Origin: Candidatus Bathyarchaeia archaeon | GTDB lineage: Archaea; Thermoproteota; Bathyarchaeia; 40CM-2-53-6; JAVZFM01 | Assembly (NCBI GenBank): GCA_038872815.1 | Contig: JAVZFM010000001.1 | Span: 1 to 35,354, forward strand | DNA length: 35,354 bases | Direction: 5' to 3' | Shown here: positions 17,945 to 23,110 of the stretch, in pieces | How positions within the stretch are numbered: position 1 is the stretch's first letter | Layout of the letters: the number at the start of each line of letters is the position of its first letter | Program-made: the position numbers and the translations under genes | The notes under the pieces: generated by a model | What the model was told of the DNA's origin: nothing | What the model saw: the letters and a program-made list of their open reading frames with translations, nothing else | Databases searched by the model: none

Positions 17945-19132
17945 TTGGTAGAACTTTCAGTTGAATTATGCGGTATAAAGTTTAAGAATCCTATCATAAA
18001 TGCAGCAGGGCCATTGGGCTATGATGGAAAAACATTAGTTAAAGTTGCAAAAGGAGGAGCTGGAGGCTTAGTAACTAAGACTATAAGCGTAACACCAGCT
18101 AAAGTTCCTAGACCTAACATGGCTTTAATCGATAGAGGAAAGCTCCTCTCTCATATGAGAATGAGCTTAAATGGAAGACCTATAGAGCTTACGAAGACAT
18201 CTATAAAAGCTACAAGCGGTATGTTAAACGTTGAGCTTTGGTCAGATATAACTTTTAAACAATGGATAGAAAAAGAAATTCCTATAGCCAAAACTACAGG
18301 CTTGCCTTTAATAGCTAGTTTAGGCTATAAGGCTGGCGATATGAGAAGAATGGCTAAAAAAATAGAAAAAGCAGGAGTAAATGCTATAGAATTTTCAACA
18401 CATTATGTTGGAATAGATCCAAAGCCTATAGTTGATGTTGCTAAAACTCTTAAAGAATTGGTTTCTATACCTGTATTCGCTAAGCTAAGTCCTCATACAC
18501 AAGAAATCTCATCGCTTGCAAAAGCTGTTGAAAAAGCAGGAGTAGATGGAATAGTTGCAATAAACTCTTTTGGGCCGTGCTTGCATATAGATATCGAAAC
18601 AGGAAAGCCATACTTAGGAGGAGAAAATGGCTATGGATGGATTTCAGGCTTACCAATTAAGCCATTGGCTATAAGATGTGTAGCAGAAATCGCTAAATCG
18701 GTAAAGATTCCGGTTATAGGCGTAGGAGGAATAGTAAGCGGAAACGACATAGTTGAGCATATAATGGCTGGAGCTTCAGCAGTTCAAGTTTGTACAAGCG
18801 CAATCATAGAAGGGCCTTCTATTTTTAGAAGGCTTGTTTCTGAATTAGAAGAATACATGAAATCTCATAAATACGATTCAATAGAAGATTTTAAAGGAAT
18901 TGCTTTAAAGCATTTGCCAAAAAAACCGATAAGAACAAAAAGCATTCCTCCTAAAATCGATATAGAAAAATGTAAAGGCTGTGGATTATGCGTAACTCCA
19001 TGCGTTTATGAAGCAATAAAAGTTGAGAAAAGACCAGGAATGCGTTCTCCTAAAGCATTCATAGATATAGAAAAATGTTATGGCTGTGGATTATGCGTAA
19101 GCTTATGCCCAACTATGGCTTTAAGTTTTTAA
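17945..19132 (+). CDS. PreA/DPD-type dihydropyrimidine dehydrogenase-like flavoprotein (DHODH fold) with a C-terminal 2x[4Fe-4S] domain
   Basis: 395 aa. TTG start 10 nt after GGAGG. Class-1 DHODH-like TIM barrel (GVGGI, NS.GP). The DPD/PreA-type segment PRPN...MLNVELWSDITFKQW is present. Two CxxCxxCxxxCP-type motifs at the C-terminus (CKGCGLCVTPC, CYGCGLCVSLCP). Confidence 0.7.
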   Translation: MVELSVELCGIKFKNPIINAAGPLGYDGKTLVKVAKGGAGGLVTKTISVTPAKVPRPNMALIDRGKLLSHMRMSLNGRPIELTKTSIKATSGMLNVELWSDITFKQWIEKEIPIAKTTGLPLIASLGYKAGDMRRMAKKIEKAGVNAIEFSTHYVGIDPKPIVDVAKTLKELVSIPVFAKLSPHTQEISSLAKAVEKAGVDGIVAINSFGPCLHIDIETGKPYLGGENGYGWISGLPIKPLAIRCVAEIAKSVKIPVIGVGGIVSGNDIVEHIMAGASAVQVCTSAIIEGPSIFRRLVSELEEYMKSHKYDSIEDFKGIALKHLPKKPIRTKSIPPKIDIEKCKGCGLCVTPCVYEAIKVEKRPGMRSPKAFIDIEKCYGCGLCVSLCPTMALSF

Positions 19133-19147
19133 ATAAAAGGTGATTTA

Positions 19148-19438
19148 ATGCCTGAAGTAATAGTTAAGCTATATACTTCTTTACGTGAAATAGCTGGTGA
19201 AAAAGAAACTAAAGTTAATGCAGAAACCATTAAAGAAGTCTTAAAAATCCTTTCAGAAAAATATGGAAATGAATTTAAAAATCATTTATTAGATGAAAAT
19301 GGGAACCTTAAGCCATTTTTCCATATAATGGTTAATGGACGTAAAATGGGGTTATTGGATGGAGTTGAAACAAGACTAAAAGATGGAGATGTTTTAGATA
19401 TTTTCCCTCCAGTAGGAGGAGGCTATTATGAGCATTGA
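19148..19438 (+). CDS. MoaD/ThiS-family ubiquitin-fold sulfur-carrier-like protein with a C-terminal extension past the Gly-Gly
   Basis: 96 aa with a beta-grasp pattern. Ends ...DIFPPVGGGYYEH instead of ...GG. Its stop overlaps the AOR start (ATGAGCATTGA). Confidence 0.7.
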   Translation: MPEVIVKLYTSLREIAGEKETKVNAETIKEVLKILSEKYGNEFKNHLLDENGNLKPFFHIMVNGRKMGLLDGVETRLKDGDVLDIFPPVGGGYYEH

Positions 19439-21359: not shown

Positions 21360-22709
21360 ATGAAAGTTAAAGTTTTAAAAAATTGTAAAATAGTCACAAG
21401 TGAAGCTATAGTAGAATGCGATATCTTAATAGAGAATGGAAAAATATCTAAGATTAAAAAATCTATTCCAAACTTTAATGTTGATGAAATAATCGATGTT
21501 AAAGGAAACATAGTACTCCCTAGCCCTATAGATGCTCATGCACATTTATATGATCAAGCCTATCTTTATCGAGAAGATTTTCAAACTGGAACGATTTCAG
21601 CCGCTTTTGGAGGAATAACTACAGTTATTGAAATGGTTTTACAAACTCCAGTAGATTCTTCAAGGCTTATAAAAGAAAAAATCGGGATAGGCGAAAAAAA
21701 TTCTTTAATAGACTTTTCACTCCATGCTGGAATGATGAATGAAAAAAATTTAGAAAACATGAAAGAAATCGTAAAGCTAGGAGTTAAATCTTTTAAAACT
21801 TTTATGTGTAAGCCCTACTATGTAAGCGATGAAACATTATTCAAGCTATTGTTAAAAGCCTCCAGTCTTAATGCTTTAATAAATGTTCATGCTGAGGATG
21901 AATCTATAGTAGAAAGCAATACTTTAAAGCTTTTAGAAAAAGGAAGAAAAGATCCATTAGCCCATAATGAATCTAGGCCTAATGAAGCTGAAGCAATAGC
22001 TATTCAAAAGGCTATAAAATCAACAGAAAAAGCTAAAGCCAGGTTGCATATTTCTCATATGTCCACTCATGAAGGTGTTAATCTAGTGAAAAAAGCTAAA
22101 AGCGAAGGCATTAAAGTTACTGCTGAAACTTGTCCACATTATTTAGTTTTTACAAAAGAAGATGTATTGAAAAAAGGTCCTTACTTAAAAATGAACCCTC
22201 CATTAAAAGGCAATGAAGATAAAGAAGCTCTTTGGAAAGGCTTAAAAAATGGTTTTGTTGATATAGTGACTTCTGAGCATGCTCCTGGAACCATGGAAGA
22301 AAAGGAAAAAGGATGGACTAACATATGGGAAGCTTGGGGAGGAATCCCAAGTATAGAAACAATGCTCCCAATTTTAATAAGCGAAGGAGTTAATAAAAAT
22401 AGATTAAGCTTTATAGATTTATACAAGATTTTATGCTTAAATCCTGCAAAAATTTTTGGGCTTTATCCAACGAAAGGTAGCTTGAATGAAGTAAGCGATG
22501 CTGATTTTGTTGTTATAGATAGAAAATTGGAGAAAAAAATTAAAAATGAAAGCCTACATTATAAAGTAGGATGGAACCCTTATGAAGGAATGGTTTTAAA
22601 AGGTTGGCCTATAATTACTATAGTACGTGGTGAGATAATAGTTAAAGATGGAGAATTGTTTCAAAAACCTGGGTATGGAAAGTTTGTTCAAATGAAAAAT
22701 CTCGTTTAG
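21360..22709 (+). CDS. Cyclic amidohydrolase (dihydropyrimidinase / allantoinase / type-I dihydroorotase-like)
   Basis: 449 aa. Motifs: IDAHAHL (HxH), VKSFKTFM (carbamyl-Lys context), NVHAED, HISHMST, ETCPHYL, and VTSEHAP where the family normally has (S/T)DH(A/S)P. Confidence 0.75.
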   Translation: MKVKVLKNCKIVTSEAIVECDILIENGKISKIKKSIPNFNVDEIIDVKGNIVLPSPIDAHAHLYDQAYLYREDFQTGTISAAFGGITTVIEMVLQTPVDSSRLIKEKIGIGEKNSLIDFSLHAGMMNEKNLENMKEIVKLGVKSFKTFMCKPYYVSDETLFKLLLKASSLNALINVHAEDESIVESNTLKLLEKGRKDPLAHNESRPNEAEAIAIQKAIKSTEKAKARLHISHMSTHEGVNLVKKAKSEGIKVTAETCPHYLVFTKEDVLKKGPYLKMNPPLKGNEDKEALWKGLKNGFVDIVTSEHAPGTMEEKEKGWTNIWEAWGGIPSIETMLPILISEGVNKNRLSFIDLYKILCLNPAKIFGLYPTKGSLNEVSDADFVVIDRKLEKKIKNESLHYKVGWNPYEGMVLKGWPIITIVRGEIIVKDGELFQKPGYGKFVQMKNLV

Positions 22710-22720
22710 GGGGTTAAAAA

Positions 22721-23110
22721 TTGCGTTTAGCAGTTGAGCCTGGAAAATGTACTGGATGTAGAATATGTGAGTTAAGATGTGCTTTATTATTTGAAAAAGC
22801 AAATAATCCTAAAAAAGCTAGGATTAGAGTAGTTAGAGCTGAGCCTGCAATAGATGAACCAATTTTTTGTATTCAATGTGATAATCCTCCATGCGTTGAA
22901 GTTTGTCCAACTAAAGCTTTAGAGAAAAATCCTAAAACTGGGGTTGTAATTTTAAAAGAAGATTTATGCATAGGCTGTAGAGCATGTGTATTGGCATGTC
23001 CTTATGGAGCTATGCTTGTTAATCCTGATAATGGAAAAGTTTTAAAATGTGTTGCATGTGGATATTGCGTTAAATATTGTCCAGTTCAATGCTTAAAAAT
23101 AATCAAATAA
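22721..23110 (+). CDS. Four-cluster [4Fe-4S] polyferredoxin (paralog of 12567-13061)
   Basis: 129 aa. TTG start after a GGGGG purine run. Motifs: CTGCRICELRC, CIQCDNPPCVEVCP, CIGCRACVLACP, CVACGYCVKYCP. Confidence 0.8.
   Translation: MRLAVEPGKCTGCRICELRCALLFEKANNPKKARIRVVRAEPAIDEPIFCIQCDNPPCVEVCPTKALEKNPKTGVVILKEDLCIGCRACVLACPYGAMLVNPDNGKVLKCVACGYCVKYCPVQCLKIIK

Follow-up and report, generated by a model that had tools for sequence, protein, structure and literature searches.

What joins a tungsten-type aldehyde oxidoreductase (AOR) to enzymes of nucleobase degradation in one archaeal operon? The question is raised by a 35,354-nucleotide stretch of DNA from Candidatus Bathyarchaeia archaeon (GenBank assembly GCA_038872815.1, contig JAVZFM010000001.1, positions 1 to 35,354; henceforth termed the window; GC content ca. 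32%). Five co-directional genes on its + strand, at 17945-23110, encode a dihydropyrimidine dehydrogenase (DPD)-like FMN protein, a ThiS/MoaD-like protein, an AOR, an amidohydrolase and a polyferredoxin. An earlier note, made from the letters of the window, had taken them for a ferredoxin-coupled, possibly aldehyde-oxidation-coupled module for the reduction and ring opening of uracil, thymine or orotate. Here, we argue that the five genes are very probably coupled in function and that the module they form is, judging from the gene neighbourhoods of its orthologues, rather likely of purine type. More tentatively, we read it as a tungsten-enzyme-linked variant of reductive N-heterocycle catabolism, most likely of purines, in which the AOR would serve as a hydroxylase or dehydroxylase. 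The open reading frames (ORFs) of the operon are as follows.

17945-19132, + strand: ORF1, FMN domain of the dihydroorotate dehydrogenase family (DHO_dh) with C-terminal 2x[4Fe-4S]; UacX-like 'IEFSTHY' clade, catalytic Cys absent
19148-19438, + strand: ORF2, ThiS/MoaD/SAMP1-like small protein, WorX type
19428-21350, + strand: ORF3, AOR-family pyranopterin subunit (WorL), orthogroup G2 of the Gln427/Asp447 clade
21360-22709, + strand: ORF4, cyclic amidohydrolase of the hydantoinase / dihydropyrimidinase / allantoinase / dihydroorotase (DHOase)-I group
22721-23110, + strand: ORF5, polyferredoxin with four [4Fe-4S] motifs, WorS type

The reductive uric acid, or 2,8-dioxopurine ('yanthine'), pathway of E. 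coli and Clostridia was reconstituted biochemically in 2025 and is encoded in E. coli by the cluster xdhD-ygfK-ssnA-hyuA-ygeWXY-yqeA, with a variant in C. difficile that carries UacX (PMC12507026; bioRxiv 10.1101/2025.04.24.650524). Xanthine dehydrogenase (XDH) makes urate, XdhD (DOPDH) removes the 6-oxo group, and the ring is reduced by YgfK or, in C. difficile, by the PF01180 protein UacX. The two rings are opened by SsnA and HyuA, and two ureido groups are lost through YgeW (or UacY) and YgeY; YqeA and YgeX yield ATP and pyruvate, respectively (PMC12507026; bioRxiv 10.1101/2025.04.24.650524).

Operon layout and recurrence in other genomes

The coordinates and junction sequences agree exactly with the spacers of 15, -11, 9 and 11 nt given in the earlier note. 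ORF1 and ORF2 are separated by 15 nt (ataaaaggtgattta), ORF2 and ORF3 overlap by 11 nt (atgagcattga), and spacers of 9 nt (agtgattta) and 11 nt (ggggttaaaaa) lie between ORF3 and ORF4 and between ORF4 and ORF5, respectively. The purine runs resembling Shine-Dalgarno sequences that had been noticed before the first and last TTG starts are also present, as GGAGG 10 nt upstream of ORF1 and GGGGG upstream of ORF5. Two non-coding elements frame the genes.

17754-17944, no strand assigned: divergent intergenic region of 191 bp between the adenine deaminase gene and ORF1, with GGAGG before the ORF1 TTG; probable promoter region, by prediction
23114-23127, + strand: T6-AC-T6 tract downstream of the ORF5 stop; candidate archaeal oligo-T terminator

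The tract had been described as the end of one transcription unit. It is real, and its reading as a terminator is plausible, but it cannot be read purely as such because it is shared with the stop and the two terminal lysine codons of a convergent cupin gene (23118-23486, - strand). An assignment of this cupin gene as a ureidoglycine hydrolase was rejected, its sole match (E = 7e-4) lying far under the cut-off.

On L166, a contig from a JGI metagenome of a related Bathyarchaeial lineage, the whole operon is found in unchanged order, with an ORF1 92% identical to that of the window. Window positions 17914-23136 align with this contig as one block at 88% nucleotide identity, and similarity ends at both operon edges, where the flanking genes are unrelated. 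This block-limited alignment indicates that the five genes form a unit beyond a chance arrangement.

For a wider view, we collected 80 species-representative loci encoding ORF1 relatives. Like the other locus samples used here, this one was seeded by conserved peptide patterns; ORFs in the loci were called mechanically and classed by BLASTP against seeds from the window, from loci L001, L002 and L004 and from the E. coli urate cluster. In 22 archaeal loci, one to three pairs of AOR and polyferredoxin genes lie within 6 kb of the gene for the ORF1 relative (henceforth PreA-like). These loci come from Bathyarchaeia, other Thermoproteota, metagenome-assembled genomes (MAGs) labelled Nitrososphaeria, and Hermod-, Hod-, Thor-, Prometh- and Heimdallarchaeota; variants of the operon also occur in a few bacteria. 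In at least 11 of the 22, the PreA-like start overlaps the AOR stop or is no more than 60 nt away from it, and a second polyferredoxin gene frequently overlaps the PreA-like stop in archaeal loci. The earlier note had proposed gene order in relatives as a check on its reading, and the association does recur, in identical order in L166 and more loosely in the 22 loci. Internal order varies among clusters; Thorarchaeota, for instance, have a MoaD-hydantoinase-like-WorS-AOR sub-module. In most relatives WorS is directly upstream of WorL. The position of the amidohydrolase between AOR and ferredoxin, correctly observed in the earlier note and counted as unusual there, is thus a local rearrangement.

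A DPD-like flavoprotein without the catalytic cysteine

ORF1 matches PF01180 (DHO_dh) and Fer4 families, has two C-terminal CxxCxxCxxxC motifs and contains no FAD domain. In a Foldseek search with its AlphaFold2 model (pLDDT 90.4), pig DPD ranks first, matching both FMN barrel and C-terminal di-cluster domain (TMq 0.77-0.79), and dihydroorotate dehydrogenase (DHODH)-B second, with a match confined to the barrel (0.67). ORF1 retains the DPD-type N-[IV]-E-L loop. The label 'PreA-type' given in the earlier note therefore holds for fold, architecture, the two ferredoxin motifs and the loop. It fails at the level of the equivalog models, with 192 bits against NCBIfam PreA (NF006183, cut-off 335), 211 bits against PyrD-1B (cut-off 269) and 137 bits against archaeal PyrD (cut-off 330). 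Identity to E. coli PreA is 26%.

The label also fails at the active site, a detail that had been missed. The catalytic-Cys motif N-x-S-C-P of DPD, PreA and DHODH (NFSCPQ in E. coli PreA) reads I-E-F-S-T-H-Y in ORF1, in which E149, S151, H153 and Y154 are invariant across 68 relatives. The catalytic Cys of DPD is Cys671 of the pig enzyme, in agreement with the titles of PDB entries for C671 mutants. In a neighbour-joining tree, the IEFSTHY proteins form a clade of archaeal and some bacterial sequences (WOR-3, Hydrothermota, Synergistales), separate from Cys-containing clades whose genes adjoin a cyclic amidohydrolase alone and which are probably of the PydAc/PydB type. A third variant of the motif was seen in PreA-like proteins beside bacterial-type Gln427 AORs of Bathyarchaeia, Spirochaetales and Anaerolineae MAGs, where IETVTY, IELVFY and IECVAY replace NxSCP/IEFSTHY (L099 8871-9995, L120 8898-9980 and L150 1337-2467, respectively).

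Neither a PreT/GltD-type NAD(P)H subunit nor β-ureidopropionase is encoded in the operon, as the earlier note had stated, and no PyrK gene adjoins ORF1. The absence of PreT is, however, less unusual than had been thought, since two related enzymes likewise have no FAD domain and depend on a low-potential donor: UacX (PMC12507026) and the ferredoxin-dependent uracil reductase PydAc of Clostridium chromiireducens, a PreT-less DPD homologue that occurs with PydB (PMC7332683).

A hydantoinase-like cyclic amidohydrolase

ORF4 is an Amidohydro_1 protein in which all five motifs listed in the earlier note (HxH, KTFM, VHAED, HISH and ETCPHYL) are present. Its best PDB match is the Arthrobacter L-hydantoinase 1gkr (309 bits), ahead of D-hydantoinases, allantoinase and DHOases (212 bits for DHOase). 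The best NCBIfam match, D-hydantoinase/dihydropyrimidinase TIGR02033, falls short of its cut-off (357.3 against 393.25 bits), as does allantoinase by a small margin. ORF4 passes only the broad domain model TIGR00857, pyrC_multi (335.7 against 279), and scores below all archaeal and bacterial DHOase equivalog cut-offs (e.g., 288 against 405 and 340.6 against 452). It is 31% identical to E. coli HyuA.

The metal ligands (HxH, the carboxylated Lys and two His) are in place. The invariant β-8 Asp is replaced by Glu at about residue 306 (VTSEHAPG), another detail that had escaped notice. The Asp is kept in 21 of 21 orthologues from other loci and in E. coli HyuA. Since the L166 copy (5681-7039, 86% identical) has the same Glu, it is a feature of the lineage and not a sequencing error. 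ORF4 orthologues consistently adjoin AORs of the orthogroups G2 or G3 described below.

A tungsten-enzyme set from an unusual AOR clade

ORF2 (PF02597) scores above the cut-offs of TIGR01687 and NF041918. It ends in a GG(G) motif and a four-residue tail, YYEH, encoded where the gene overlaps that of the AOR by 11 nt; in most orthologues Gly-Gly is the very C-terminus. ORF5, with 16 Cys in four CxxCxxCxxxC-type motifs, matches Fer4_11 and related families, YdhY-like PRK09898 and PadI. ORF3 comprises AFOR_N and AFOR_C with conserved cluster ligands Cys288, Cys291, Cys295 and Cys494, and its best PDB matches are AmWOR1 (9mqx, 480 bits) and P. furiosus AOR (1aor, 461 bits). In a 2026 classification of tungsten oxidoreductases (WORs), a ThiS-like protein, an AOR and a four-cluster ferredoxin correspond to WorX, WorL and WorS of Class II (PMC13328260). 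By sequence, ORF2, ORF3 and ORF5 are thus an ordinary Class II set, with tungsten predicted from family membership, and their combination is standard where the earlier note had seen something unusual. That classification and its stored supplements name no PF01180, FMN- or DHODH-like partner and no link to purines (PMC13328260).

What sets ORF3 apart is its active site. We aligned the cluster-linked AORs to P. furiosus AOR, checking residue numbers against a HMMER alignment. In all of them Tyr427 is replaced by Gln and Cys447 by Asp, while Thr243, Glu313, His448 and, with the exception noted below, the cluster Cys are retained. Gln427/Asp447 AORs form one clade that also holds members from Spirochaetales, Anaerolineae and the PVC group. 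According to a 2025 review, Tyr427, a residue conserved among known AORs, positions the aldehyde, and its exchange accompanies altered function: WOR4 has Trp at this position and no aldehyde activity, and ASOR/WOR5, with His, hydroxylates a non-aldehyde carbon. With Gln at this position in ORF3, the aldehyde-oxidation coupling offered in the earlier note is unproven.

The cluster-linked AORs split into three conserved orthogroups. G1 lies immediately upstream of the PreA-like gene, and G2, which includes ORF3, adjoins a hydantoinase-like or deaminase gene. In G3 (L002 13111-15036, L004 14346-16265, L007 18219-20174, L043 18452-20332 and others), Asp replaces Cys288, the first [4Fe-4S] ligand, so that the cluster may be Asp-ligated or otherwise altered; Tyr450 and Glu489 likewise take the place of Arg/Lys and Asp. 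These shared substitutions, like the gene content and architecture of the clusters and their clade-specific contexts, are direct observations.

The association also appears when the search starts from the other side. Among 80 loci seeded on the AOR instead of ORF1, a PreA-, SsnA- or hydantoinase-like gene lies within 8 kb of 13 of 27 Gln427/Asp447 AORs and of 2 of 59 other AORs (Fisher p = 1.6e-6, without correction for phylogeny).

Probable purine-type context of the orthologues

Genes around other IEFSTHY-clade members encode an SsnA-like amidohydrolase (best NCBIfam hit SsnA), YgeY (above cut-off), two ornithine transcarbamylase (OTC)-like proteins, carbamate kinase (CK) and a pyridoxal phosphate (PLP) enzyme. 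Desulfurococcales have the conserved order OTC-like, OTC-like, carbamate kinase, SsnA-like amidohydrolase, PreA-like, ThrC-like PLP enzyme, to which one complete genome adds an M20 hydrolase of the YgeY family, above cut-off. In Hadarchaeales a hydantoinase-like gene stands beside an SsnA-like-PreA-like pair, and Asgard clusters have TRZ/ATZ deaminases resembling DadD and guanine deaminase. The WOR-3 bacterium L047 combines XdhC-XdhD-like, hydantoinase-like, SsnA-like, PreA-like, YgeY-like, OTC-like and PLP-enzyme genes, and XDH-family genes occur in the bacterial loci L047, L048 and L050. SsnA-like and other uricolytic neighbours accompany ORF1 orthologues of 50-61% identity (L004, L005, L007, Desulfurococcales, Hadarchaeales) and bacterial members of the same motif clade (L046, L047, L049), not ORF1 in the window.

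In composition, these neighbourhoods match the reductive urate cluster in which UacX replaces YgfK. Two carbamoyltransferases per archaeal cluster fit a substrate that gives two ureido groups, i.e., a purine. Iron-sulfur-wired N-heterocycle reduction and ring opening, as proposed in the earlier note, is thus plausibly the right kind of chemistry; uracil, thymine or orotate is probably the wrong substrate, given the SsnA-, YgeY-, OTC- and CK-like neighbours, the XDH-family genes in bacteria, and an adenine deaminase and a nucleoside transporter in the window.

A possible tungsten-linked reductive purine pathway

We infer the purine substrate class, a physical wiring between tungsten and FMN enzymes, and the catalytic role of the AOR. 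In the proposed scheme, ORF1 would be a low-potential, iron-sulfur-fed FMN reductase akin to UacX and PydAc that dearomatises an oxopurine of the 2,8-dioxopurine ('yanthine') type, and ORF4 would open a reduced ring hydrolytically. ORF3 and ORF5 would form the WorL-WorS pyranopterin/polyferredoxin enzyme, with ORF2 (WorX) serving its cofactor. The tungsten enzyme would act on the heterocycle itself, by hydroxylation or dehydroxylation of a ring carbon, the job of the selenium/molybdenum (Se/Mo) XDH and of DOPDH (XdhD) in bacteria, and the polyferredoxin would exchange electrons with ferredoxin and with the FMN enzyme.

An action on the heterocycle is suggested by the altered active site, by the up to three conserved AOR paralogues per cluster and by gene position. 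In L047, XdhC-XdhD lies directly upstream of HyuA-SsnA-UacX-like genes, the position held by WorS-WorL in archaeal clusters, which contain no XDH-family genes except in L026. Three paralogues would also fit the arithmetic of the route, in which three pterin-dependent steps and one flavin step lead from hypoxanthine to dihydro-yanthine with no net electrons. A BLASTP search of the window with E. coli XdhA and XdhD gave no match, so that any resemblance to XDH and DOPDH would be functional only. In its most specific form, the proposal is that the three orthogroups of the Gln427/Asp447 clade are purine-ring hydroxylases and dehydroxylases that replace the Se-dependent Mo XDH and DOPDH in anaerobic purine catabolism of archaea and some bacteria, wired through polyferredoxins to a Cys-less DPD-like yanthine reductase with which they exchange electrons in one assembly. 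We consider this version rather unlikely.

Several observations weigh against the purine scheme. The window contains no SsnA-, OTC-, CK- or YgeY-like gene, and the purine assignment therefore relies on orthologues that are 50-61% identical. The adjacency of the adenine deaminase and nucleoside transporter genes is not conserved in L166. Clusters of Desulfurococcales and Hadarchaeales have no AOR beside the PreA-like gene, and of the Gln427 AORs, about half have no PreA-like or amidohydrolase gene nearby. ORF3 closely resembles bona fide aldehyde oxidoreductases and retains Glu313 and His448, and we know of no AOR-family enzyme that hydroxylates a heteroaromatic carbon. XDH-family genes and Gln427 AORs co-occur in the bacterial loci L118, L122 and L150, so that a simple replacement of XDH is not a full account. 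The stand-alone AORs nearest to ORF3, G2-like Asgard pairs with their own polyferredoxin (L092 5533-8728 and the equivalent stretch of L087; 54-57% identity), are preceded by genes for glutamate dehydrogenase and a class IV aminotransferase. The trees, finally, are neighbour-joining trees without support values, the large AOR tree being built with a fast distance method. As a separate observation on L092 and L087, nucleoside phosphorylase and phosphoribosyltransferase genes lie 6-8 kb from the stand-alone AOR pair.

Alternative explanations

The alternative that survives best is an aldehyde-driven electron supply, a wider form of the coupling suggested in the earlier note, which we consider unlikely but a serious contender. 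WorL-WorS would be a true aldehyde (or similar) oxidoreductase whose low-potential electrons, delivered through the polyferredoxin, drive the dearomatisation of a nucleobase by the FMN enzyme, the PreA-like protein playing the part of the FAD subunit WorN in Class III WORs. The aldehyde/acid couple lies at about -500 mV (PMC13328260), and the order WorS-WorL-PreA-like-WorX found in many loci, with overlapping or very short junctions, recalls the S-L-N...X arrangement of AaAOR-type operons. The closest matches of ORF3 are aldehyde-oxidising AORs, and Thr243, Glu313 and His448 are kept, while YgfK alone yielded no detectable product, for which its authors blame unfavourable thermodynamics. The amino-acid catabolic genes beside stand-alone ORF3 relatives fit ordinary oxidation of amino-acid-derived aldehydes and keep this alternative alive. 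The known reductive purine pathway, however, produces no aldehyde, and PreA-like orthologues in Desulfurococcales, Hadarchaeales and bacteria have no adjacent AOR or polyferredoxin. Also left unexplained are the up to three AOR orthogroups per cluster, the loss of the aldehyde-positioning Tyr427 and the presence of WorS-WorL where the bacterial cluster L047 has XDH-family genes.

Ferredoxin-dependent reductive pyrimidine catabolism, with ORF1 as a PydAc-like uracil/thymine reductase, ORF4 as a PydB-like enzyme and the WOR merely regenerating or consuming ferredoxin, appears improbable. It draws on the DPD fold and N-[IV]-E-L loop of ORF1, on D-hydantoinase/dihydropyrimidinase as the best NCBIfam match of ORF4, on a window operon with one reductase and one cyclic amidohydrolase, as in PydA-PydB, on PydAc as proof that PreT-less enzymes exist, and on a uridine-phosphorylase-like fragment in L004. 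Against this, ORF1 lacks the Cys retained by all Cys-containing PydA/PreA-like clades sampled and does not group with them, and ORF4 stays under the dihydropyrimidinase cut-off with Glu for the catalytic Asp. PydC and β-alanine-handling genes are absent, and the orthologous clusters contain SsnA- and YgeY-like, two OTC-like and purine-type deaminase genes, with XDH-family genes in bacteria.

A juxtaposition without a shared pathway, in which a generic aldehyde-detoxifying WorXLS set happens to stand beside nucleobase genes, has a small chance of being right. These archaea have many AOR genes, half of the Gln427 AORs are found away from PreA-like and amidohydrolase genes, order within clusters varies, and the window itself contains a second, unrelated AOR pair. 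Yet the association recurs across archaeal phyla, Spirochaetales and Anaerolineae with junctions that overlap or span less than 60 nt, it is specific to one AOR clade (13/27 vs 2/59), and the five genes travel as one block between the window and L166.

A PyrD-PyrC pair for pyrimidine synthesis or orotate fermentation, suggested by the Pfam name DHO_dh of ORF1 and by the TIGR00857 match and DHOase-like (D/E)HAP motif of ORF4, is hardly credible and was rejected on the equivalog scores of both proteins, the hydantoinase preference of ORF4 in the PDB, the missing catalytic Cys and PyrK and the catabolic gene context, in line with what the earlier note required of its own reading.

Other features of the window

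Three further features could bear on nucleobase metabolism or tungsten enzymes.

15987-17753, - strand: adenine deaminase (TIGR01178, 599.6 bits against a cut-off of 472.5; PF13382), divergent from ORF1
9482-12554, + strand: Bmp/PnrA-type nucleoside ABC transporter, substrate-binding protein (PF02608) and two permeases (PF02653 x2)
12567-15014, - strand: second WorS-WorL pair, polyferredoxin 12567-13061 and AOR2 13086-15014, between the nucleoside transporter and the adenine deaminase

The adenine deaminase is possibly linked to the operon as a purine feed-in, although it was not found beside the operon in the other loci fetched. The transporter, about 5 kb from the operon and with no ATPase ORF seen adjoining it, is a possible uptake system of the pathway. 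The AOR2 pair may or may not belong to the same system. AOR2 falls outside the Gln427 clade (Ser243, Phe312, Val427, Asp447) and groups with bacterial AORs, one of which, in L118, adjoins a Gln427 AOR and two sets of XDH-family genes. No tungstate transporter gene is present in the window.

On the - strand at 6781-9006, an Fe-S flavoprotein of the GltD/DPD-domain-II type (464 aa, 6781-8175) adjoins a PyrK-like protein of 276 aa with DHODB_Fe-S_bind; by sequence, the pair looks like an NfnAB/SudAB-type NAD(P)H:ferredoxin oxidoreductase. The GltD-like gene was rejected as the missing PreT, being 10 kb from the operon and paired with the PyrK-like gene.

Downstream of the operon (23696-24505, + strand), ORF 24071-24505 resembles ADP-forming acyl-CoA synthetases in their last ~125 residues only, follows short ORFs in other frames and is probably a gene remnant; L166 has an intact 449-aa CoA ligase upstream of its operon. 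The ca. 970 bp between AOR2 and the adenine deaminase (15015-15986) contain only short ORFs of 59 and 81 aa and neither an Rfam hit nor a tRNA; across the whole window, Rfam at gathering thresholds and ARAGORN gave no matches. At 1543-4429 (- strand), amino-acid-kinase-family, Hydantoinase_A/oxoprolinase-family and ATP-grasp genes stand in tandem.

Novelty and significance

The earlier note had not recognised a described pathway, and no paper in the searchable library links AOR or tungsten with DHODH/DPD, purines, SsnA or dioxopurine. Neither a PF01180/DHODH-like neighbour nor purines appear in the Wolframiiraptor AOR paper, and neither archaea nor tungsten is mentioned in the two bacterial pathway papers (PMC12507026; bioRxiv 10.1101/2025.04.24.650524). 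Novelty appears to lie in three points: a WOR coupled to a DPD-like reductase and to amidohydrolases acting on nucleobases, the WOR clade with Gln427/Asp447 in which this coupling is found, and an altered, archaeal form of the bacterial pathway described in 2025.

The operon suggests an undescribed job for the tungsten enzyme family, and AORs that combine an altered active site with a link to genes of nucleobase degradation are a concrete, testable candidate for new tungsten chemistry. If the purine scheme is right, a reductive pathway solved only in 2025 in gut bacteria would reach Bathyarchaeia and Asgard archaea, heterotrophs that abound in sediments and whose consumption of carbon and nitrogen from nucleic acids is little understood, and it could run without selenium-molybdenum hydroxylases. 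If the Gln427/Asp447 AORs act on the purine ring, theirs would be the first N-heterocycle chemistry in the AOR family, and the FMN/DPD-like partner would define a new class of WOR subunits. Should the AOR only donate electrons, the pairing of a WOR with a DPD-like FMN subunit still lies outside the current five-class scheme.

Comparison with known systems

With the bacterial reductive urate cluster, the operon shares a FAD-less PF01180 FMN/Fe-S reductase (UacX-like), a hydantoinase-type cyclic amidohydrolase, and a pterin enzyme with an Fe-S subunit beside the reductase; orthologous archaeal clusters additionally share SsnA-like, YgeY-like, carbamoyltransferase, carbamate kinase and PLP-enzyme genes. 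Unlike it, the system is archaeal, its pterin enzymes are AOR/WOR-family proteins with four-cluster polyferredoxins instead of Se/Mo XDH-family enzymes, with up to three AOR paralogues per cluster, two OTC-like genes are present and a ThrC-like PLP enzyme replaces YgeX, whereas the window operon itself is without SsnA and the downstream genes.

Pig DPD (1h7w and related entries), the best structural match of ORF1, has the same FMN barrel and C-terminal di-cluster domain at 22-24% identity. ORF1 differs in the absence of the N-terminal Fe-S, FAD and NADPH domains and of a Cys671 equivalent, and in a β-hairpin insertion at residues 64-90. PydAc/PydB (PMC7332683) resembles the operon in pairing a PreT-less DPD homologue, fed with low-potential electrons, with an adjoining cyclic amidohydrolase. 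However, PydAc has two ferredoxin domains with four clusters and ORF1 only the C-terminal two, ORF1 has Thr at the catalytic Cys position of canonical DPD/PreA, the operon has no PydC, and clade and context differ.

Class II and III WORs (CbGOR, PfASOR and AaAOR AorABC; PMC13328260, PMC12096430) share with the operon a WorL of AFOR_N/AFOR_C with the [4Fe-4S] Cys, a four-cluster WorS and a ThiS-like WorX, and their gene order S-L-(flavoprotein)-X is also found in the operon's relatives. In these relatives, the WorN position is held by a DPD-like FMN/2x[4Fe-4S] enzyme in place of the FAD/NAD subunit, Gln stands for the second-shell Tyr427 and Asp for Cys447, and the clade is tied genomically to N-heterocycle amidohydrolases rather than to aldehyde detoxification.

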